Assembly: GCA_965225855.1 (NCBI GenBank)
Contig: CBDDCK010000005.1
Location: 608,001 to 672,000, forward strand
Length of the DNA stretch: 64,000 nt
Source of the DNA: Spirochaetia bacterium
Lineage (GTDB): Bacteria; Spirochaetota; Spirochaetia; SP-2023
Direction: 5' to 3'
This document shows, in pieces, positions 50,292 through 64,000 of this stretch (position 1 is the first letter of the stretch; each line of letters begins with the position of its first letter). A model generated the notes under the pieces. The model was not told where the DNA came from, ran no database searches, and saw only the letters and a list, made by a program, of their open reading frames with translations. The position numbers were made by a program, and so were the translations under genes.

Positions 50292-52970
50292 TCAAGAAGT
50301 AGTTTGATTGCTTGATTGTATTACTGCTTGAGCTGCAGCAAGGCATGCAAAAGGTACTCTTAATGTAGAACAGGATACATAGTTTAATCCACATTGGTAT
50401 GCAAAGTTGATAGAGTGGGGTTCTCCTCCGTGTTCACCACAAATGCCAATAGAAAGGTCTGGTTTTGTTGTTCTTCCTGCAATAGTAGCATGTTTCACCA
50501 GAAAGCCTACTCCTGTAGTATCTAATATTTGAAATGGATCATTTTCTAATATTTTTTCGTCAAGGTAATTAGGGAAGAAAGAAGAAGTGTCTTCTCTTGA
50601 AAAACCATAGGTGAGTTGTGTTAAGTCGTTTGTGCCAAAAGAGAAGAAATCTGCATACTGAGCAATTTTATCTGCAGTGATGGCTGCTCGAGGAATTTCT
50701 ATCATAGTGCCTATTTTTGAACTAATGCTGAGTTTATTTTTTTGTTCTTCTTCTTTTATTATAAATTGTGCAAGTTCTTTAAGGCGTGCTAATTCAGTAT
50801 ATGAGCCTACTATAGGTATCATGATTTCAGGCTTTACTTTAATGCCTTTTTTAAGACATGATATTTCAGCATTGATGATTGCTCTAATTTGCATTTCATA
50901 TACTTCAGGATATATAATCCCTAATCTACATCCACGCAGTCCCATCATAGGGTTGCTTTCATGAAGTCTTTGTATTCTGTGTTGTATTTCAGTAATAGAG
51001 ATATTAAGCATAGATGCTAGTTCAGATTGCTGTTTTGCTTCTTGTGGTAAGAATTCATGTAAAGGAGGATCAAGAAGCCTAATGGTTACTGGTAATCCTT
51101 TCATTGCAGTGAGGATGCCTTCAAAATCTTTTTTTTGTAAAGGAAAAAGTTTATCTAATGCTTTTTTTCTACTTTTTTGATCATCAGCAAGTATCATTTC
51201 TCGAAAAATGTATATTCTATCTTCGTTAAAAAACATGTGTTCTGTTCTACATAATCCAACTCCTTGTGCTCCCAAATTTCGGGCTTTTAAGGCATCTTCT
51301 GGAGTATCAGCGTTTGCTCGAACATTAAAACTTGAAGGATAATTTTTAGGGCGTTTTGCACCTGATCGTATTTGATCGGCATAGCTAAGAAATGTTTTTA
51401 TATCATTGTCCATACTTGCTTCAATAAGTGGAAGTGCAGTATCATATATTTCTCCCGTAGAACCATCTAAAGTGAGTACTGTTCCTACTGGATATTCTTT
51501 ATCAGCTATAATTACACTTCTATCCTTTATTTGTAGCGTAGAACAACCAACAATACAGGGGGTTCCCATTCCTCTTGCTACGACTGCAGCATGGCTTGTC
51601 ATTCCTCCCGTACTTGTGAGGATGCCTTGTACTACACTCATTCCTACAATATCTTCAGGGGATGTTTGTGCGCGTACTAATATCGTTTTAATGCCTTTTT
51701 GGGCAGAATCTTGCGCTTCCCATGAAGAAATAACTATATTTCCGACTGCTGCTCCGGGAGATGCATTGATTCCTTTCGCTAATACGGGTGATGTTTTTTT
51801 AGCTTTATCATCAATACGGGGATGAAATACTTGTTGAAATAATTTTTCATCAACACGAAGTAATGCTTCCTCTTTAGTAATAAGTTTTTCTTTTACCATA
51901 TCTACAGCAATTTTTATTGCTGCGGCACCAGTGCGTTTTCCGCTTCTTGTTTGTAAAATATATAATGTTCCTTGTTCTATGGTAAATTCTATGTCTTGCA
52001 TATCGCGATAATGCATTTCTAATGTATCTTTTATTGCTACTAATTGAGAATATATTTTTGGCTGTTGTTCTTTTAGAGTATGTATTTTCTTTGGTGTTCG
52101 TATTCCTGCTACTACATCTTCTCCTTGAGCATTCATAAGATATTCACCATAAAATACTTTTTCTCCTGTTGATGCATCACGAGTAAAAGCAACACCAGTA
52201 CCAGAATCAAGCCCAAAATTTCCAAATACCATAGATTGTACATTTGCTGCTGTTCCTAACAGTCCAGAGATTTTATTTAGTTTTCTGTATGTTATAGCTC
52301 GTTCGTTGTTCCATGAACTAAATACTGCTAAAATAGCTTCTTGTAATTGTGTGTGGACATTTTGAGGAAAATCTTTTTTTGCATGTTTCTTAAAAAGGGC
52401 TTTATATGCAAATACTACTTTTTTTAATGCTTCTGCATTAAGTTCAGTGTCTAGTGCTACATTGTATTCATTTTTTACTTTTGTGAGAACTTGTTCAAAA
52501 TCATGATGGTTCATATTATATACAACATTACCAAACATATTGATAAGTCTTCTATAGGCATCATATGCAAAACGTTCATTTTGAGAAGATTGTGCTAGCC
52601 CTATAACAGATGTATCGTTCAGCCCTAGGTTAAGAATAGTATCCATCATGCCGGGCATTGATACTGCTGCTCCAGAGCGGACTGATACTAATAATGGATT
52701 TTTAGAATCTCCTAGCTTTTTTGAAAGTATAGTTTCAAGTCGAGTGATTGCTTTTTTGGTATTTTCTTTTAGTCCTGGTGGAAACTTTTTTGTTTCATTG
52801 TATTTTGCACAAGCTTCGGTAGTAATCGTAAATCCAGGAGGGACTGGTATGTTTAAGCCTGCTATTTCAGCAAGATTAGCTCCTTTTCCTCCTAGTATTT
52901 CTTTCATTGATGAATCTCCTTCGTATATACCTTTGCCAAAGAAATATATATATGCCAATGTTTCTTTCAT
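50292..52970 (-). CDS. ppdK: Pyruvate phosphate dikinase
   Basis: LGGKGANLAE, SVRSGAAVSMPGMMDT, GGMTSHAAVVARG, GLCRTEHMF and GICGEHGG motifs. Confidence 0.98.
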   Translation of the reverse strand: MKETLAYIYFFGKGIYEGDSSMKEILGGKGANLAEIAGLNIPVPPGFTITTEACAKYNETKKFPPGLKENTKKAITRLETILSKKLGDSKNPLLVSVRSGAAVSMPGMMDTILNLGLNDTSVIGLAQSSQNERFAYDAYRRLINMFGNVVYNMNHHDFEQVLTKVKNEYNVALDTELNAEALKKVVFAYKALFKKHAKKDFPQNVHTQLQEAILAVFSSWNNERAITYRKLNKISGLLGTAANVQSMVFGNFGLDSGTGVAFTRDASTGEKVFYGEYLMNAQGEDVVAGIRTPKKIHTLKEQQPKIYSQLVAIKDTLEMHYRDMQDIEFTIEQGTLYILQTRSGKRTGAAAIKIAVDMVKEKLITKEEALLRVDEKLFQQVFHPRIDDKAKKTSPVLAKGINASPGAAVGNIVISSWEAQDSAQKGIKTILVRAQTSPEDIVGMSVVQGILTSTGGMTSHAAVVARGMGTPCIVGCSTLQIKDRSVIIADKEYPVGTVLTLDGSTGEIYDTALPLIEASMDNDIKTFLSYADQIRSGAKRPKNYPSSFNVRANADTPEDALKARNLGAQGVGLCRTEHMFFNEDRIYIFREMILADDQKSRKKALDKLFPLQKKDFEGILTAMKGLPVTIRLLDPPLHEFLPQEAKQQSELASMLNISITEIQHRIQRLHESNPMMGLRGCRLGIIYPEVYEMQIRAIINAEISCLKKGIKVKPEIMIPIVGSYTELARLKELAQFIIKEEEQKNKLSISSKIGTMIEIPRAAITADKIAQYADFFSFGTNDLTQLTYGFSREDTSSFFPNYLDEKILENDPFQILDTTGVGFLVKHATIAGRTTKPDLSIGICGEHGGEPHSINFAYQCGLNYVSCSTLRVPFACLAAAQAVIQSSNQTTS

Positions 52971-53107
52971 AAGAACTCCTTATCGATTTTCAAGTATTTA
53001 GAGTATACCATCTTTAAAAATTAATGCAAAGCTTTTTTTAAAAATTAGTGCAAAACTTTTAAGATACAACTAAAGAAATTAAATACTTTTCTGCACCACC
53101 ATATCAT

Positions 53108-53378
53108 ATGGCAAAAAGAAAGATATATCGATACAAGCAATTCATGCATGTTTTAAAAGAATATCTTGTTATAAAAGTGGTTTATATTGGAATAACAAAC
53201 AATCCAGAAAGACGAGAAAGGGAACATTGCTTAGATGGTAAAAAATTCTCGCATATGAAAGTAGTTTCTATAAGAAGAATGACAAAAGCGGGTGCGAAAA
53301 AAGAGAAGCGAAAAGGTTGGCGCGATATAGAAAAAACCAAGGGAAAATCCCACATATAACAAAAATTCTAACGGTTAA
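53108..53378 (+). pseudogene. Small GIY-YIG-like nuclease, probably frameshifted near the 3' end
   Basis: VVYIGITNNPERREREH; the C-terminus reads more plausibly (REAKRLARYRKNQG, then NPTYNKNSNG-stop) after two shifts at A-runs. Confidence 0.55.
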
Positions 53379-53700
53379 AATTTAGAGCAAATATAAAAAG
53401 AGCGGTTGCGTTGCGTATGATCGTACTAAACATTTACGATTTTTTGCAATTTTTTGAGACTGCCACAGGCTCGTTGGGAAATCCCTAGGTTGCAAATCAA
53501 AAAAGCTAGTAAGGTTTTGGGCAAAAACCTTACTAGCTTTCTTTAAAAACCTTACTAGCTTTTTGAGACCATGCGCTGTTACCATGATATTTTGATACTT
53601 ACACCATCTTATACCATATTGCTGCCGACAATAACCCATATGCCGAAAAACAAAAATTCTAACGGTTAAAATTTAGAGCAAATATAGAAAGAGCAGTTGC
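53358..53700. repeat. 52-bp direct repeat pair (53358-53409 and 53649-53700, 2 mismatches), each copy ending in CRISPR-repeat-like sequence
   Basis: aacaaaaattctaacggttaaaatttagagcaaatata(a/g)aaagagc(g/a)gttgc. Confidence 0.9.
53498..53566. terminator. Hairpin with one left arm and two alternative right arms; possible bidirectional terminator
   Basis: aaagctagtaaggtttt pairs with aaaaccttactagcttt at 53524-53540 or 53546-53562. Confidence 0.6.
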
Positions 53701-53724
53701 ATACCTTTTTCATTTCGGTTTAAT
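53693..53724 (+). CRISPR. Detached degenerate CRISPR repeat
   Basis: gcagttgcatacctttttcatttcggtttaat equals the array repeat lacking the first GTT and one T. Confidence 0.92.
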
Positions 53725-53829
53725 TAGGGCCAGGGCTAGCGAGAATGTGCAGCGTGGTTTGGATAGAGACGCTGGGAAAATTCTTTGGTAAAATTAAAAA
53801 ATAAGAAATTAGGAGTTTTAGGAGTTTTT

Positions 53830-54546
53830 ATGAAAGTTTTTTGGATTGTGAAAATTTTAATGTTTGTGGCGATGATGAGTTACAATCTTTCTGGTGTGTT
53901 GTGGGCTAAGCAGCCGTTGGTGATTGGCGGTACTGTAAATGCTGGCTATACGGGTTTTAGTGGGTCTTGGACTAGCAAAACGAATGGGGTTCTCGATTTT
54001 GAGTGGGACGATGTAACTGGGCTGAGTGTGCCTATTAATGTTTTGGTACATGGGGCTTATGGCTTGAATGATTGGTTTAGCGTTGGCGGTGTGCTTGGGT
54101 TTGGTGTTGGCGTTGATTCTGATTTGGGAACGCCTAAGTATACGGTTAATGGTACTGCTACTGTGCCTTTGGTAGAAAGTGTGGTTGGCGGTTTTAGGAT
54201 TGGGCCTTATTTTCGCTTTGGTTTATGGGGCAAGGATAAAGGCGGGGGTATAGCTGTGGCTGCTTTGTTTATGATTGATTCTTTTCGGGAGCCACAGAGG
54301 TATTCTTTTTATACTGGTAGTGGTTATCTGTATTTGCAGCAAAAAGGCGTTTCGGTGGCTGGTTTGGCTTTAATGAGTGATATTTTTATCAATCGGTATT
54401 TTGGTGTAAATGTTGGTTTGGTTTTTAGTGGTTTGACGAGTGATGGAAACTTTGAAAGGGTGGCTGGCAATAAGTTGGAGCTTAGGGCTGGTGGCGTTGG
54501 CTTTTTGTTGGGGGCTAGTTTTTCTGTGCCGATAAAATTTAAATAA
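53830..54546 (+). CDS. Putative outer-membrane beta-barrel protein lying between the detached repeat and the main array
   Basis: Duplicated AGGAG RBS before ATG 53830 (track starts 53785); signal peptide ending VLWA; Gly/aromatic-rich amphipathic strands; C-terminal GFLLGASFS. Confidence 0.7.
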   Translation: MKVFWIVKILMFVAMMSYNLSGVLWAKQPLVIGGTVNAGYTGFSGSWTSKTNGVLDFEWDDVTGLSVPINVLVHGAYGLNDWFSVGGVLGFGVGVDSDLGTPKYTVNGTATVPLVESVVGGFRIGPYFRFGLWGKDKGGGIAVAALFMIDSFREPQRYSFYTGSGYLYLQQKGVSVAGLALMSDIFINRYFGVNVGLVFSGLTSDGNFERVAGNKLELRAGGVGFLLGASFSVPIKFK

Positions 54547-54594
54547 TTTTTTTGTTTTTGCTGGGATAAATTCGTTGTTTTTTGCGAGCCCAAA

Positions 54595-54631
54595 CCTATG
54601 TAAGTATTTTATCAATAAATACTTACATAGG
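54595..54631. terminator. 15-bp perfect inverted repeat between the OMP gene and the first full repeat
   Basis: cctatgtaagtattt-tatcaat-aaatacttacatagg. Confidence 0.7.
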
Positions 54632-54643
54632 GGACTGAGAATT

Positions 54644-57600
54644 GTTGCAGTTGCATACCTTTTTTCATTTCGGTTTAATAAATTCTTTAGGTCTTTAACT
54701 TTAGCAGTTGTTGCAGTTGCATACCTTTTTTCATTTCGGTTTAATCCGTTGCCACGAAACCTTACCACCAAGGGCGTTGCAGTTGCATACCTTTTTTCAT
54801 TTCGGTTTAATCCTTGGCTTTGATTTTTTGGATATTATTTAGTTGCAGTTGCATACCTTTTTTCATTTCGGTTTAATACCTCTACCCCTATCTCTCCCCC
54901 CACTCCTGTTGCAGTTGCATACCTTTTTTCATTTCGGTTTAATACCTCTACCCCTATCTCTCCCCCCACTCCTGTTGCAGTTGCATACCTTTTTTCATTT
55001 CGGTTTAATCTTATTCTGCTTCTTAAGTCTATTATAGGTGTTGCAGTTGCATACCTTTTTTCATTTCGGTTTAATTCAGACCCAACAGACAAACCATGAC
55101 CGGCAGTTGCAGTTGCATACCTTTTTTCATTTCGGTTTAATGATTTGGATTGTGAATTGTGGTAGGCTATAGTTGCAGTTGCATACCTTTTTTCATTTCG
55201 GTTTAATTGCGCTTAGTCGCAAGGTCAACATCCAGGCGTTGCAGTTGCATACCTTTTTTCATTTCGGTTTAATCCTCTGGAGGCCACAAAGTGTAAGGCA
55301 GTGGTTGCAGTTGCATACCTTTTTTCATTTCGGTTTAATTTACGGGAAATACAAAGATACAATATTTTTGTTGCAGTTGCATACCTTTTTTCATTTCGGT
55401 TTAATATGCCAATAACATCTGGACTATCTCTTTTTGTTGCAGTTGCATACCTTTTTTCATTTCGGTTTAATCCTATAGGGATCACTGGTGGCTCACCTCT
55501 TGTTGCAGTTGCATACCTTTTTTCATTTCGGTTTAATACACATCTTTAATCAAAAATCCTACTTCTTGTTGCAGTTGCATACCTTTTTTCATTTCGGTTT
55601 AATTTCACTGCGACCAAGGGCAATATCCTGTTGGTTGCAGTTGCATACCTTTTTTCATTTCGGTTTAATCTTTGGTGTAATCATAATGTCGAATTTCTGG
55701 TTGCAGTTGCATACCTTTTTTCATTTCGGTTTAATACAAGGTCACGACCGCGACTAGGCTTGTATGTTGCAGTTGCATACCTTTTTTCATTTCGGTTTAA
55801 TTATTCAAGTCACCATACTCACCGGCAGCATGTTGCAGTTGCATACCTTTTTTCATTTCGGTTTAATACAAGGTCACGACCGCGACTAGGCTTGTATGTT
55901 GCAGTTGCATACCTTTTTTCATTTCGGTTTAATTATTCAAGTCACCATACTCACCGGCAGCATGTTGCAGTTGCATACCTTTTTTCATTTCGGTTTAATA
56001 TTAAACGCAACCCCCATTCAGTCGACCTAGTTGCAGTTGCATACCTTTTTTCATTTCGGTTTAATACCATCGCCAGCAACAAGTCTCTTTGCGTGGTTGC
56101 AGTTGCATACCTTTTTTCATTTCGGTTTAATGATTCTACCATTCTCACGCCCTACAAGAGCGTTGCAGTTGCATACCTTTTTTCATTTCGGTTTAATGTG
56201 AGGTATTAACAGCCGATGATATAGTTAGTTGCAGTTGCATACCTTTTTTCATTTCGGTTTAATTTGTCAGCCCAAATTGTTCTTTTGTATTATGTTGCAG
56301 TTGCATACCTTTTTTCATTTCGGTTTAATTATGCGCCCGTGATCTACAATATTATGGTTGTTGCAGTTGCATACCTTTTTTCATTTCGGTTTAATAGAAA
56401 TATCTCTAAGCATATTAAAAATCATGTTGCAGTTGCATACCTTTTTTCATTTCGGTTTAATTCTCTTTCGATACGATGCATCCATTCTTTAGTTGCAGTT
56501 GCATACCTTTTTTCATTTCGGTTTAATAGTAGACATATGCATAACTTTGCCAAGTATGTTGCAGTTGCATACCTTTTTTCATTTCGGTTTAATTTTGTGA
56601 ATGGTCCAGTGTCTGTATTCGTTGTTGCAGTTGCATACCTTTTTTCATTTCGGTTTAATAATTACAACATTCATCGGCAATAAATAAGAGTTGCAGTTGC
56701 ATACCTTTTTTCATTTCGGTTTAATCATTGTACCCTGCGGTGTACGATCAACATAGTTGCAGTTGCATACCTTTTTTCATTTCGGTTTAATTCCAGGAGT
56801 AACCATAACAGAACCCTTAGCGTTGCAGTTGCATACCTTTTTTCATTTCGGTTTAATCATTGTACCCTGCGGTGTACGATCAACATAGTTGCAGTTGCAT
56901 ACCTTTTTTCATTTCGGTTTAATTCCAGGAGTAACCATAACAGAACCCTTAGCGTTGCAGTTGCATACCTTTTTTCATTTCGGTTTAATCATTGTACCCT
57001 GCGGTGTACGATCAACATAGTTGCAGTTGCATACCTTTTTTCATTTCGGTTTAATTCCAGGAGTAACCATAACAGAACCCTTAGCGTTGCAGTTGCATAC
57101 CTTTTTTCATTTCGGTTTAATCATTGTACCCTGCGGTGTACGATCAACATAGTTGCAGTTGCATACCTTTTTTCATTTCGGTTTAATTCCAGGAGTAACC
57201 ATAACAGAACCCTTAGCGTTGCAGTTGCATACCTTTTTTCATTTCGGTTTAATCATTGTACCCTGCGGTGTACGATCAACATAGTTGCAGTTGCATACCT
57301 TTTTTCATTTCGGTTTAATAGTCTTAGGAATGGAGTGGGAAGTCTGAAGGTTGCAGTTGCATACCTTTTTTCATTTCGGTTTAATATTTTTGCCCGTTGT
57401 TTTGCTTTTATTGTGGTTGCAGTTGCATACCTTTTTTCATTTCGGTTTAATAAATTTGCCTGTTTTATATTCTCGTAGTACGTTGCAGTTGCATACCTTT
57501 TTTCATTTCGGTTTAATTGGAAGTCTTGGCTGGTGAAATTGTTAAATGTTGCAGTTGCATACCTTTTTTCATTTCGGTTTAATTGCTTTTTCTTTTTCCT

Positions 57601-60600
57601 GTGTTTTTTCTTGGTTGCAGTTGCATACCTTTTTTCATTTCGGTTTAATTTAGTGAGTGTCTTATTGCCGTCTTGATGGGTTGCAGTTGCATACCTTTTT
57701 TCATTTCGGTTTAATTCGATATTCTAGGCGCTAGTAACGCAGCTGTTGCAGTTGCATACCTTTTTTCATTTCGGTTTAATGCACTGATGCATAAATAGCT
57801 AGGTTTATCGGTTGCAGTTGCATACCTTTTTTCATTTCGGTTTAATTCGATATTCTAGGCGCTAGTAACGCAGCTGTTGCAGTTGCATACCTTTTTTCAT
57901 TTCGGTTTAATGCACTGATGCATAAATAGCTAGGTTTATCGGTTGCAGTTGCATACCTTTTTTCATTTCGGTTTAATTCGATATTCTAGGCGCTAGTAAC
58001 GCAGCTGTTGCAGTTGCATACCTTTTTTCATTTCGGTTTAATCCTCTGGTAATTCTCCAAGGCTTCGATGCAGTTGCAGTTGCATACCTTTTTTCATTTC
58101 GGTTTAATCCTCTGGTAATTCTCCAAGGCTTCGATGCAGTTGCAGTTGCATACCTTTTTTCATTTCGGTTTAATTTTTAGGTCGTGATGGTGAAGAGCTG
58201 GAAGGTTGCAGTTGCATACCTTTTTTCATTTCGGTTTAATTAAACAATATTAAAGGCAAGTTTATCTTGTGTTGCAGTTGCATACCTTTTTTCATTTCGG
58301 TTTAATAAAATCCAAACAAATCATTCAACAAAACAAGTTGCAGTTGCATACCTTTTTTCATTTCGGTTTAATTTCTGGGATATGATCAAGCGTTTCGCTG
58401 GCGTTGCAGTTGCATACCTTTTTTCATTTCGGTTTAATCCGTAGAGACAACATTATGAATAAGCGAAGGTTGCAGTTGCATACCTTTTTTCATTTCGGTT
58501 TAATAGTAGTAACAAGACCAAAATGAACATTTCCGTTGCAGTTGCATACCTTTTTTCATTTCGGTTTAATAGTAAAACCTCCTACGTCTGCGCATAAAAT
58601 GTTGCAGTTGCATACCTTTTTTCATTTCGGTTTAATATAATTATTTTATTCTCCACCCCTATAAAAGTTGCAGTTGCATACCTTTTTTCATTTCGGTTTA
58701 ATTGTGGCAATTGCCCAATTCGGGATATTTTCGTTGCAGTTGCATACCTTTTTTCATTTCGGTTTAATTAGCAGACCGTAAGGACTTACCAAGAGCTTGT
58801 TGCAGTTGCATACCTTTTTTCATTTCGGTTTAATTAAAAAGGTTGTTACGAGCACTGTAGAACAGTTGCAGTTGCATACCTTTTTTCATTTCGGTTTAAT
58901 TTAAGCGTTGCTGGGCTAAAGGTAATGTGTTGCAGTTGCATACCTTTTTTCATTTCGGTTTAATTGTAATTTCTACTGCTGTAGATTAGATAAAGTTGCA
59001 GTTGCATACCTTTTTTCATTTCGGTTTAATTGTAATTTCTACTGCTGTAGATTAGATAAAGTTGCAGTTGCATACCTTTTTTCATTTCGGTTTAATAGCC
59101 TTTACCAAGTTCTTCCACCCAATCATGTTGCAGTTGCATACCTTTTTTCATTTCGGTTTAATTGACCCGTCAACAGGTCAGTTTCGGCCTTAGTTGCAGT
59201 TGCATACCTTTTTTCATTTCGGTTTAATATATAAATGCTAAGTAATACCTCCGAATTAGTTGCAGTTGCATACCTTTTTTCATTTCGGTTTAATAATAGC
59301 AATTGGACAACCGAAAGCAAAGGGTTGCAGTTGCATACCTTTTTTCATTTCGGTTTAATAGCCTTTACCAAGTTCTTCCACCCAATCATGTTGCAGTTGC
59401 ATACCTTTTTTCATTTCGGTTTAATTGACCCGTCAACAGGTCAGTTTCGGCCTTAGTTGCAGTTGCATACCTTTTTTCATTTCGGTTTAATATATAAATG
59501 CTAAGTAATACCTCCGAATTAGTTGCAGTTGCATACCTTTTTTCATTTCGGTTTAATGAAAACCTTGAGTAACATAAACCGGTGTAGGTTGCAGTTGCAT
59601 ACCTTTTTTCATTTCGGTTTAATATAAAAAAGCTCGGCCTGCTTGTTCAGTGTGTTGCAGTTGCATACCTTTTTTCATTTCGGTTTAATAGCCCCAGTCG
59701 TTTTTTATGAATGTTTTGAGTTGCAGTTGCATACCTTTTTTCATTTCGGTTTAATCCCAATACTACCCAAATCTCCCTCATCCTTGTTGCAGTTGCATAC
59801 CTTTTTTCATTTCGGTTTAATCCTAATACCACCCAAATCTCTCTCATTCTTGTTGCAGTTGCATACCTTTTTTCATTTCGGTTTAATCTAGGTCTGTATT
59901 TGATCTATCTCATTCTGGTTGCAGTTGCATACCTTTTTTCATTTCGGTTTAATATTTGTAGATTGTTCTACCATAGAAGATTGGTTGCAGTTGCATACCT
60001 TTTTTCATTTCGGTTTAATAATACCGATTATCTACAGACTGGCAAGCGAGTTGCAGTTGCATACCTTTTTTCATTTCGGTTTAATATTTGTAGATTGTTC
60101 TACCATAGAAGATTGGTTGCAGTTGCATACCTTTTTTCATTTCGGTTTAATAATACCGATTATCTACAGACTGGCAAGCGAGTTGCAGTTGCATACCTTT
60201 TTTCATTTCGGTTTAATATTTGTAGATTGTTCTACCATAGAAGATTGGTTGCAGTTGCATACCTTTTTTCATTTCGGTTTAATAATACCGATTATCTACA
60301 GACTGGCAAGCGAGTTGCAGTTGCATACCTTTTTTCATTTCGGTTTAATAGCCCCAGTCGTTTTTTATGAATGTTTTGAGTTGCAGTTGCATACCTTTTT
60401 TCATTTCGGTTTAATCCCAATACTACCCAAATCTCCCTCATCCTTGTTGCAGTTGCATACCTTTTTTCATTTCGGTTTAATATAATACTTACTCCATTGT
60501 GTAAGGCTGGGGGTTGCAGTTGCATACCTTTTTTCATTTCGGTTTAATGTGTATCATAGTAGGTCTTGAATCTAGGTGGTTGCAGTTGCATACCTTTTTT

Positions 60601-63600
60601 CATTTCGGTTTAATCCAACCAAGCAATCGCAGCAAAACTGCCAGGTTGCAGTTGCATACCTTTTTTCATTTCGGTTTAATAAAATAATCTTTACCCCAGC
60701 AACGAGTCTGGTTGCAGTTGCATACCTTTTTTCATTTCGGTTTAATGCATGGACAAGAGAATGCCGCAGAAACCTTGTTGCAGTTGCATACCTTTTTTCA
60801 TTTCGGTTTAATCCACAGAACAAAAACCTAAGACTTGGTTGGGTTGCAGTTGCATACCTTTTTTCATTTCGGTTTAATAGATATAAGATGCGGATTGCGC
60901 TTAGTCGCGTTGCAGTTGCATACCTTTTTTCATTTCGGTTTAATATTCCTGCCAAAATAGCGCCTATAGCCATAGTTGCAGTTGCATACCTTTTTTCATT
61001 TCGGTTTAATCATAACATGATCGATATGATGGCGCATTTTGTTGCAGTTGCATACCTTTTTTCATTTCGGTTTAATACTCTTAGGAATAGTATGAGAAGT
61101 CTGTAGGTTGCAGTTGCATACCTTTTTTCATTTCGGTTTAATTTTTTCTTCCGTGCTTATTAATATTTTATTGTTGCAGTTGCATACCTTTTTTCATTTC
61201 GGTTTAATATTTATGTTGCATATAACAACCTCCTATAAGTTGCAGTTGCATACCTTTTTTCATTTCGGTTTAATCTTCTCAGCCAATTCACGTTGATGAT
61301 TCTTGTTGCAGTTGCATACCTTTTTTCATTTCGGTTTAATACCATGACCGGCCATCGTGCCCTGCGGTGTGTTGCAGTTGCATACCTTTTTTCATTTCGG
61401 TTTAATCAGACCAAGCAGACCATCGGACTTAATCCTGTTGCAGTTGCATACCTTTTTTCATTTCGGTTTAATAAATAGATTCTGGTCTCTATAGAATTCC
61501 TTGTTGCAGTTGCATACCTTTTTTCATTTCGGTTTAATAATAGCCTGATCCAAAGGAAGATCACCTTCGTTGCAGTTGCATACCTTTTTTCATTTCGGTT
61601 TAATGAGACTACCGGCTTCATATTTGGGCTTTGAGTTGCAGTTGCATACCTTTTTTCATTTCGGTTTAATAAATAGATTCTGGTCTCTATAGAATTCCTT
61701 GTTGCAGTTGCATACCTTTTTTCATTTCGGTTTAATAATAGCCTGATCCAAAGGAAGATCACCTTCGTTGCAGTTGCATACCTTTTTTCATTTCGGTTTA
61801 ATGAGACTACCGGCTTCATATTTGGGCTTTGAGTTGCAGTTGCATACCTTTTTTCATTTCGGTTTAATATTTTCACAAAACCTTCACACTCACTCTCTGT
61901 TGCAGTTGCATACCTTTTTTCATTTCGGTTTAATAGTAAAATCATAAAGGATAAAGTAATATTAGTTGCAGTTGCATACCTTTTTTCATTTCGGTTTAAT
62001 ACCCCAACAACGAACCTGAAGATCGTAAGTGTTGCAGTTGCATACCTTTTTTCATTTCGGTTTAATCCTACAACCCTTCACAACTCACTCATAATCGTTG
62101 CAGTTGCATACCTTTTTTCATTTCGGTTTAATTTATACTGGCGCTAATGTTGGTGAGGATGTGTTGCAGTTGCATACCTTTTTTCATTTCGGTTTAATGA
62201 GACTACCGGATTCATATCTGGAGCTTGCGTTGCAGTTGCATACCTTTTTTCATTTCGGTTTAATAATTCTTAGATAATATCCATTTAGGGCTAAGTTGCA
62301 GTTGCATACCTTTTTTCATTTCGGTTTAATTAGTCATAAACAAACTTTCTAAAGAATATTGTTGCAGTTGCATACCTTTTTTCATTTCGGTTTAATTTTC
62401 TGGTGGTGTGGGCTCGGCAAAATCCAGTTGCAGTTGCATACCTTTTTTCATTTCGGTTTAATAATGATCAGCGCCCAACCAGATAACTTTGTGTTGCAGT
62501 TGCATACCTTTTTTCATTTCGGTTTAATTTTCTGGTGGTGTGGGCTCGGCAAAATCCAGTTGCAGTTGCATACCTTTTTTCATTTCGGTTTAATTTTGCT
62601 TTCTTGAATCTGCTTGTATTTTAGGTTGCAGTTGCATACCTTTTTTCATTTCGGTTTAATTTTGCTTTCTTGAATCTGCTTGTATTTTAGGTTGCAGTTG
62701 CATACCTTTTTTCATTTCGGTTTAATTCGGAAACAGTTATGCCAGTAGCATTGGAAGTTGCAGTTGCATACCTTTTTTCATTTCGGTTTAATACGATCAA
62801 CCTCGGCTTGAATCTGCTTGTATTTTAGGTTGCAGTTGCATACCTTTTTTCATTTCGGTTTAATCTACCCAAATGCCAATAATCATAAGTAGTAGTTGCA
62901 GTTGCATACCTTTTTTCATTTCGGTTTAATTCAGCTAGCAGAGATTCATGATACAGTTCTGTTGCAGTTGCATACCTTTTTTCATTTCGGTTTAATCGAT
63001 CATGTATTAAAGCAATCTTCTCACGGGTTGCAGTTGCATACCTTTTTTCATTTCGGTTTAATAGGTCACTAACGCGGCGCTGTACAGAAGTGTTGCAGTT
63101 GCATACCTTTTTTCATTTCGGTTTAATAATCCAAACCATCGTGGTAGATGGCGTAGCGTTGCAGTTGCATACCTTTTTTCATTTCGGTTTAATATGAAGG
63201 TTTATTTTGTGCCTTATGGGCTTGTTGCAGTTGCATACCTTTTTTCATTTCGGTTTAATCTCATTTCTCTCATCCTTCACAACCTTCCAGTTGCAGTTGC
63301 ATACCTTTTTTCATTTCGGTTTAATATCAAAAATAGTTTTTTGAAGAGATTTCTGGTTGCAGTTGCATACCTTTTTTCATTTCGGTTTAATTCGCTACCA
63401 ACAGAAAGACCATGACCGGCAGTTGCAGTTGCATACCTTTTTTCATTTCGGTTTAATAAAGGCTAGATTTTCTAAGGTTGGGCCTTTGTTGCAGTTGCAT
63501 ACCTTTTTTCATTTCGGTTTAATAAATTTTTATCAAAATAATGGCCACCTTGCGTTGCAGTTGCATACCTTTTTTCATTTCGGTTTAATAGGAAACTTCT

Positions 63601-64000
63601 TTCCTTGACAAGGCATATTGTTGCAGTTGCATACCTTTTTTCATTTCGGTTTAATACTTAGATTTTTAAGTGCTTCTACAGGTGTGTTGCAGTTGCATAC
63701 CTTTTTTCATTTCGGTTTAATCTATTGATTATGGGCCTGTTGGGCTCTTGGGTTGCAGTTGCATACCTTTTTTCATTTCGGTTTAATTAAAAAATCGTCA
63801 ATGTCGCTACTGTGTCGGTTGCAGTTGCATACCTTTTTTCATTTCGGTTTAATCTTAAATTTGTAACTTTTTTATAATTTTTGGTTGCAGTTGCATACCT
63901 TTTTTCATTTCGGTTTAATCTGCTTAATTTTTTAGCTTGGAGACTTGTGTTGCAGTTGCATACCTTTTTTCATTTCGGTTTAATTTTATCAACATCTCCA
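54644..64000 (+). CRISPR. Large CRISPR array, type II-C-like, about 142 repeats; runs off the window end
   Basis: Invariant 36-nt repeat GTTGCAGTTGCATACCTTTTTTCATTTCGGTTTAAT; spacers mostly 30 nt (range 28-36); 66-bp period; resembles the Neisseria II-C repeat GTTGTAGCTCCCTTTCTCATTTCGCAGTGCTACAAT. Subtype and strand are inferred; no cas genes in window. Confidence 0.98.

Follow-up and report, generated by a model that had tools for sequence, protein, structure and literature searches.

Type II-C CRISPR arrays of Neisseria meningitidis carry promoters within their repeats, and transcription starts at the sixth base of the spacer that follows the repeat (PMC12477760). Degenerate trailer repeats are also known, the old array end being stable and seldom lost (PMC8047081), and there are described cases of mobile DNA entering such loci: prophage PhiAP1.1 inserts into type II-A repeats (10.1101/2020.10.09.333658) and Tn7-like transposons target CRISPR arrays (PMC11837452). 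A literature search covering mainly open-access papers found no account of inserts with genes in II-C arrays. Here we describe such an insert in a Spirochaetia bacterium (assembly GCA_965225855.1, hereafter G000), where a whole gene for a predicted outer-membrane protein lies between the two oldest repeats of a type II-C array. The window, i.e. the whole 64,000-nt stretch analysed, is G000:C5:608001-672000; C5 coordinates follow the numbering of the same contig, and coordinates without prefix are window positions. An earlier note made from the sequence alone had described two repeats of the same orientation bracketing 919 bp with a ribosome-binding site (RBS), an open reading frame (ORF) of about 238 aa and a hairpin, and our analysis confirms this observation. 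We favor, with a probability of about 0.55, the reading that a block of 880 bp, comprising the gene and an inverted copy of the leader, was inserted at the junction of the oldest spacer and the second repeat, and that the gene was kept for its own surface function and not for a role in immunity. The features on which the argument turns are as follows.

53690..53724, plus strand: oldest repeat of the array, detached from the rest (32/36; 5′ end altered at three positions, one T deleted)
53725..53746, plus strand: self-derived spacer remnant, 20/22 nt identical to the genome's polA-like gene (C5:1691154-1691175)
53741..53752, plus strand: short duplication, left copy, made of spacer end and clipped repeat start (right copy 54637-54650)
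53786..53824, plus strand: promoter-like site and RBS (extended -10-like TG-G-TAAAAT at 53786-53794; AGGAG at 53811-53815 and 53820-53824)
53830..54546, plus strand: intact 238-aa ORF of a small lineage family; the prediction is an outer-membrane beta-barrel of eight strands, with a signal-like helix at the N-terminus
54556..54636, minus strand: inverted leader homologue, 57/81 nt (70%) against the array's own 3′ leader
54644..64000 in the window, continuing to C5:675944, plus strand: type II-C CRISPR array with a 36-nt repeat

The array comprises 202 exact repeats on the plus strand (C5:662644-675944) and 201 spacers of 28-36 nt, none of them long and 192 of them 30 nt. It is followed by the leader, then by cas2, cas1 and cas9 on the minus strand and finally by the trans-activating CRISPR RNA (tracrRNA). 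No csn2 or cas4 ORF lies between the three cas genes, so that the II-C label given earlier stands. Since the leader adjoins cas2 at the opposite end, we infer that the left end of the array is its oldest. The detached repeat is part of this old end, as had been proposed: 53693-53724 agrees with repeat positions 4-36 in 32/33 nt (E 5e-8) and has the same orientation as the 202 exact repeats, while a genome-wide repeat scan (at least 24 matches) gave no other non-array site above 25, save the anti-repeat upstream of cas9 (26). Compared with the sigma-70 consensus, the array repeat holds the pair TTGCAT-17 nt-TTTAAT (8/12 consensus positions, a match of sequence alone), and the detached copy a weak pair TTGCAT-16 nt-TTTAAT.

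Two objections, misassembly and antisense transcription of the detached repeat as tracrRNA, fail because the contigs are identical and the true tracrRNA lies upstream of cas9. In each of runs X1-X3, which derive from one sample, possibly the source of the G000 assembly, a single contig covers 53657 or 53695 to 54679 and crosses the insert with zero differences. At the sequence level, an anti-repeat of the tracrRNA type, accompanied by hairpins and a terminator, was identified at a separate place upstream of cas9 (an Rfam scan of the window gave no matches). The detached repeat was rejected as a tracrRNA candidate: where a nexus and terminator would be needed, its antisense 3′ side has an AT-rich duplication and a dispersed element. 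Contigs from two samples of a second study (runs X4 and X5, contig depth 2.5-6.8) keep the repeat, the gene and the leader copy. One X4 contig (depth 3.4) has a detached repeat that is nearly intact at its 5′ end and stands behind a terminator-like hairpin; the T deletion is common to it and G000.

The interval from the detached repeat to the first full repeat (53725-54643, 919 nt) is a composite. It opens with a remnant of spacer size, whose polA match is well above chance (0/150 shuffles at 19/22), and 12/171 real spacers of the array reach at least 20/22 in the genome. The final six bases of the remnant, together with a clipped repeat start, are found again at the border of the first full repeat and reach into it, forming a 14-nt duplication. 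The extended -10-like site was recognized by consensus match and missed by a promoter scan that requires a -35 hexamer; the 5′ untranslated region is predicted to fold no better than shuffles (z -1.3). Downstream of the gene, the first base of the leader copy (E 1e-6, 0/500 shuffles) corresponds exactly to the one with which the true leader succeeds the last repeat, and the copy terminates in a likely remnant of the cas2 stop codon. Within it lies a 15-bp hairpin (54595-54631; fold z -4.2, 0/200 shuffles equally stable) that shows compensatory changes relative to the true leader, and the core of which is also present in the leader of the orthologous locus of G001, one of three congeners compared (G001, G002, labelled Candidatus Haliotispira prima, and G003). 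The sequence behind the detached repeat was tried as a leader remnant and rejected, as 301-395 of 500 shuffles score equally well.

The earlier note left open whether the gene had been captured as a giant spacer or inserted into the oldest spacer. Insertion fits the junctions, while flush giant-spacer capture is unsupported for this insert because an ordinary self-derived remnant stands at its start and a short duplication at its end. With 919 nt against 28-36 nt in the 201 others, it lacks the canonical length of Cas1-Cas2 spacers, and it is not a flush single piece, being made of polA remnant, short duplication, gene and inverted leader. Neither does it resemble an insertion sequence (IS) or transposon: no transposase ORF and no terminal inverted repeat are listed, the weak 14-nt duplication being the sole such feature. 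No recombinase ORF was seen within the locus, where no search aimed at attC or IntI was made. There is no second genomic copy of 53701-54643 in G000, and the cassette DNA was found in 0/5 of genomes G001-G005; repeat-pattern scans of metagenome and genome collections, in which near-identical genomes may be excluded, gave 0 matches.

In the scheme we favor, the block would have entered at the junction of the oldest spacer and the second repeat and so left the first repeat stranded upstream. The route may have been short-homology recombination or template switching, perhaps begun at the leader-repeat nick of a sister CRISPR locus. The gene would be expressed from its own extended -10 site, possibly aided by the putative repeat promoter, with termination or pausing at the 54595-54631 hairpin. 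We propose that the old end of a II-C array tolerates inserts because every downstream repeat would have its own promoter; the gene would then be retained for its own surface function, and as the stranded repeat decays, loss through repeat-repeat recombination would become slower.

Several observations argue for such an insertion. The interval opens with a spacer-sized self match, and the block is flanked by the 14-nt duplication, a signature that recurs at a 756-nt insert adjoining the G002 array (0/2000 shuffles there). An adjacent 52-nt duplication round a dispersed element represents the same insertion style at this site. The gene has host-like third-position G+C, its G002 homologue lies away from CRISPR, and it shows a synonymous excess and no stops. 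Finally, old-end inserts occur in 7/52 spirochete and 2/33 control arrays, and in the second array of G000 one repeat is interrupted by an IS-like element. Other points weigh against it. The duplication is marginal (44/2000 shuffles position-restricted, 267/2000 unrestricted, in a test designed post hoc), and its signature is present in 2/15 inserts only. The 919 nt have a repeat as outer border on either side, the arrangement that Cas1-Cas2 integration would leave; two inserts elsewhere, L176, flush between perfect repeats, and the near gene-precise L193, fit direct capture better. Among the genomes and contigs compared, neither a donor locus nor an empty allele with an intact spacer was found.

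These last points bear on an integron-like origin, in which II-C Cas1-Cas2 occasionally integrates gene-sized DNA between repeats, the repeat promoter expresses it and cassettes that are useful persist at the old end. We regard it as a possible, though doubtful, explanation of the present insert, and much of what bears on it comes from other arrays, where the earlier note had suggested looking for repeat-ORF-repeat cassettes. Of 76 spirochete loci scanned (L-numbers denote loci extracted for this survey), 63 had an array and 52 were evaluable; six cas1 matches ≤1.4 kb from a contig end were excluded. A gap >100 nt was seen in 11 arrays, from which four were removed: L170 and L137 (IS-like ORFs), L186 (cas9 between array and anti-repeat) and L153 (no ORF of 60 aa). 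The remaining 7 give a frequency of non-IS, ORF-bearing old-end inserts of 7/52. The control set, 79 loci, mostly Bacteroidota, with 33 evaluable, gave 2/33, both resembling tandem duplications, so the spirochete rate is not significantly above control (Fisher p 0.30). Besides the chain in G002, the gene-sized old-end inserts of spirochetes include the following.

L193 (8117-9110): whole YdeI/OmdA-family gene with 30 nt ahead of its start codon and 6 nt behind its stop codon, too little space for a promoter of its own
L136 (10346-11189): whole gene for a 166-aa secreted-type protein behind a repeat
L176 (9399-10763): 1,293 nt flush between two perfect repeats
L155:8179-9375, L183 and L128:7076-9957: further gene-sized inserts

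In favor of capture is the II-C locus of G002, which belongs to another Cas1 clade. There 8 exact repeats are followed by ten decayed repeats over 16 kb (G002:C1:1156725-1172640; L034:10726-19318 and L039:699-6641), with inter-repeat pieces of 29 to 7,521 nt that carry a type I restriction operon, ferrochelatase, luciferase-domain, MORN, scramblase and other genes. Repeat identity declines with distance (rho -0.79, n = 10) to 21/36 in the weakest, the old repeats have variants in common, and none of the chain repeats was found elsewhere in G002 at ≤3 mismatches. L193 and L136, with whole genes behind a repeat, and L176, a kilobase-long spacer-like piece, point the same way, as does the right end of our insert, which coincides with the leader-repeat border. 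Among inserts of at least 300 nt, 8/15 begin with an entire ORF that has an RBS and lies 25-140 nt behind the repeat, compared with 2.9% of random fragments. It should be noted, however, that five of these eight come from one locus (4/8 by genome), that the comparison with random fragments is a lenient one, because a repeat that survives has to be located between genes, and that co-orientation of insert genes (9/13, p 0.27) is not significant. For the insert described here, capture has also to contend with the spacer remnant, the duplication, the gene's own promoter-like site and the uniform length of the other spacers.

The inverted leader suggests yet another history: the gene stood beside an older CRISPR-cas locus of opposite direction, of which the leader and the cas2 stop are left, and the present cassette came later, its first repeat and spacer falling upstream of the gene. 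The leader copy is 30% diverged as compared with 11% for the detached repeat, and the gene has host-like codon use. Relics of this kind occur at two other places in G000. At the leader end of the array (L158:3945-4700, G000:C5:675945-676700) a duplication, its copies 87% alike, takes in the leader and the 3′ portion of cas2, and a partial repeat precedes the second leader; at C5:1152750 (L159:12751-12840) a lone exact repeat of the second array is followed by a copy of that array's leader. Such replacement would nevertheless need two junctions, one on either side of the gene, and the gene was not found at this place in the three congeners, though gene order there differs anyway. We consider it unlikely. 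With respect to synteny, G001-G003 share no gene order with G000 right of the rhomboid gene.

Under the insertion reading, the gene is kept for what its product does, and the 238-aa protein is likely a working surface protein, because of the barrel prediction, the synonymous excess, the lack of stops and the changes in a predicted outer loop. The beta-barrel-like composition noted before is in line with the structure model (predicted local distance difference test 64, built from six sequences), which resembles NspA, OprF, OmpW and OmpA at Z 11-12, with NspA as the best fold match (Z 12.3, root mean square deviation 3.4 over 147 residues). A protein atlas places the protein among unnamed and outer-membrane beta-barrel clusters (0.97). 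Model, fold searches and atlas thus predict an outer-membrane barrel of eight amphipathic strands with a signal peptide, the latter assigned by visual inspection. Pfam gave no match, and a word-indexed protein search returned the self-match alone. Six homologues were found among 1.84 billion representatives, one of them from G002 and annotated at source as outer-membrane beta-barrel protein. This reciprocal best homologue sits among lipoprotein-like paralogues at a locus without CRISPR repeats or cas genes. A single-protein search detected the gene in 1/60 other genomes, and a profile search adds weak matches in G001. None of five pattern matches to metagenome homologue loci was confirmed. Over 523 covered coding nt, X4 and X5 differ from G000 by 12 synonymous and 9 non-synonymous codon changes without a stop, and 6/9 of the non-synonymous changes fall within residues 161-175, the predicted outer loop. 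Third-position G+C of the gene (0.39) is near that of ruvB (0.40) and the rhomboid gene (0.38), as compared with 0.49 for cas9 and 0.54 for cas1.

The earlier note proposed that the gene, possibly for a phage receptor or decoy, could be coupled to immunity, through co-transcription with the pre-crRNA, cutting of its mRNA at the repeats by tracrRNA and RNase III, or repeat-repeat excision; control by Cas9 binding is a further variant. The clustering of non-synonymous changes in a predicted outer loop speaks for such coupling. In silico the detached repeat still pairs with the anti-repeat (-36.8 versus -39.9 kcal/mol), and it is retained in the second-study contigs. Another X4 contig joins an upstream small ORF, from 53175, to a repeat with the gene missing; this joint does not correspond to repeat-repeat excision, neither repeat lies inside the ORF, and no precise excision joint is present among the contigs listed. 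The geometry does not favor cutting of the mRNA at the repeats either: since II-C transcripts begin inside the spacer, past the repeat (PMC12477760), cleavage at the upstream repeat would leave the mRNA untouched, while cleavage at the downstream one would fall ∼100 nt beyond the stop. None of 171 spacers of the array has a 3′ seed match of at least 9 nt in the insert, the second array has 2/53 with 9-10 nt, which is within chance, and none of 35 pattern matches to a viral homologue was confirmed. The proposed tie between surface protein and immunity thus finds no support, and we consider it very improbable.

Two features lie upstream of the locus.

53358..53700, no strand: dispersed palindromic element of ∼250 bp between two copies of a 52-nt duplication
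50292-53359: ppdk

Of the dispersed element (window 53405-53658), 32 copies were found, and their flanks are modular; at this site the element is enclosed by the 52-nt duplication, and short homology is seen at either end. The 52-nt duplication overlaps the 5′ end of the detached repeat, and it is there that the repeat is clipped in G000. ppdk has a very low third-position G+C (0.18) and a small GIY-YIG ORF alongside; it is absent from searches of G001 and G002, is located elsewhere in G003, and is likely a recent acquisition. Within 52800-54679 the gene contig of runs X1-X3 has ∼2.5 times the depth of the ppdk-side contig (27 versus 11), which may reflect several upstream neighbours in the sample, depth not being copy number.

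The CRISPR loci of G000 show further peculiarities. The tracrRNA anti-repeat (L158:9541-9660, G000:C5:681541-681660) has a 15-17 nt insert in its bulge, and that of G001 a similar, shorter one. Spacers at window positions 58963-59058 and at C5:675813-675842 resemble the repeat of a third array (type V-like, C5:1074000-1094600), and two other spacers match chromosomal genes in 30/30 nt. The lone repeat at C5:1152750 ends an island with a restriction-modification gene and an IrrE/helix-turn-helix gene. In the second II-C array, a repeat is split at C5:896071-898846 by an IS-like element, presumably of the IS1595 family, with a transposase-like ORF, a split DNA methyltransferase, terminal inverted repeats and an 8-nt duplication. 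The methyltransferase was considered as a gene cassette and rejected on account of the inverted repeats, the duplication and the transposase-like ORF. Such a split is an ordinary route to the appearance of a gene between repeats.

The gene-between-repeats layout is real and commoner than first apparent, and its value lies in the recurrence of the layout, chiefly the G002 chain in a Cas9-bearing locus. CRISPR arrays are regarded as a record of memories of 30 nt each; among the spirochete type II arrays examined, roughly one in seven carries gene-sized DNA at the old end, in several cases a whole gene just behind a repeat with a predicted promoter. As a tentative and rather speculative generalization, II-C arrays might double as platforms for gene capture and expression, where Cas1-Cas2 or repeat recombination writes genes, repeats supply promoters and an integron-like chain of useful genes, for surface proteins, restriction systems and enzymes, builds up at the old end, seen in full in G002. 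If Cas1-Cas2 does write the inserts, kilobase integration would be possible in Cas9-bearing systems, with a bearing on spacer-length control and DNA-writing tools. If the insertions are passive, arrays would still be a place where accessory genes settle and that has been overlooked, and programs that search for arrays cut such arrays short.

The locus resembles N. meningitidis II-C arrays with repeat promoters (PMC12477760) in its cas9-cas1-cas2 set, a repeat of 36 nt that has a -10-like hexamer at its end, spacers of ∼30 nt, a leader next to cas2 and a separate tracrRNA, and differs in the whole gene and inverted leader copy between the two oldest repeats. Like degenerate trailer repeats (PMC8047081), its oldest repeat has substitutions and a deletion; unlike there, the terminal interval is 919 nt and protein-coding. 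As with PhiAP1.1 and array-targeting Tn7-like elements, foreign DNA splits the array and strands repeats, whereas the insert here is <1 kb, lacks integrase, transposase and terminal inverted repeats, and brings a host-type membrane gene. A lone repeat near a cas locus with a non-cas neighbour recalls standalone repeats, mini-arrays and scaRNA (10.1101/2023.03.03.530964) as well as crlRNA-controlled defence genes (10.1101/2024.12.27.630466); unlike these, the repeat stands in array register and not in the cas operon, and no guide-target pair was found. A check of the scaRNA type showed no seed match to the insert, a polA remnant (20/22) with no full repeat directly after it, and no other strong match in the flanking 30-mers. 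The putative surface protein has 4-12% sequence identity to NspA, OmpW, OprF and OmpA and, unlike them, no Pfam match, and it shares with them the predicted 8-stranded barrel. Integrons consist of rows of cassettes with attC sites, the IntI tyrosine recombinase and an upstream promoter. Unlike integrons, the sites here are CRISPR repeats, each with a promoter-like hexamer, and mobility is only hypothetical; integron-like, in G002, L193 and L136, is the row of whole genes, with related short sites between them and a putative promoter upstream.

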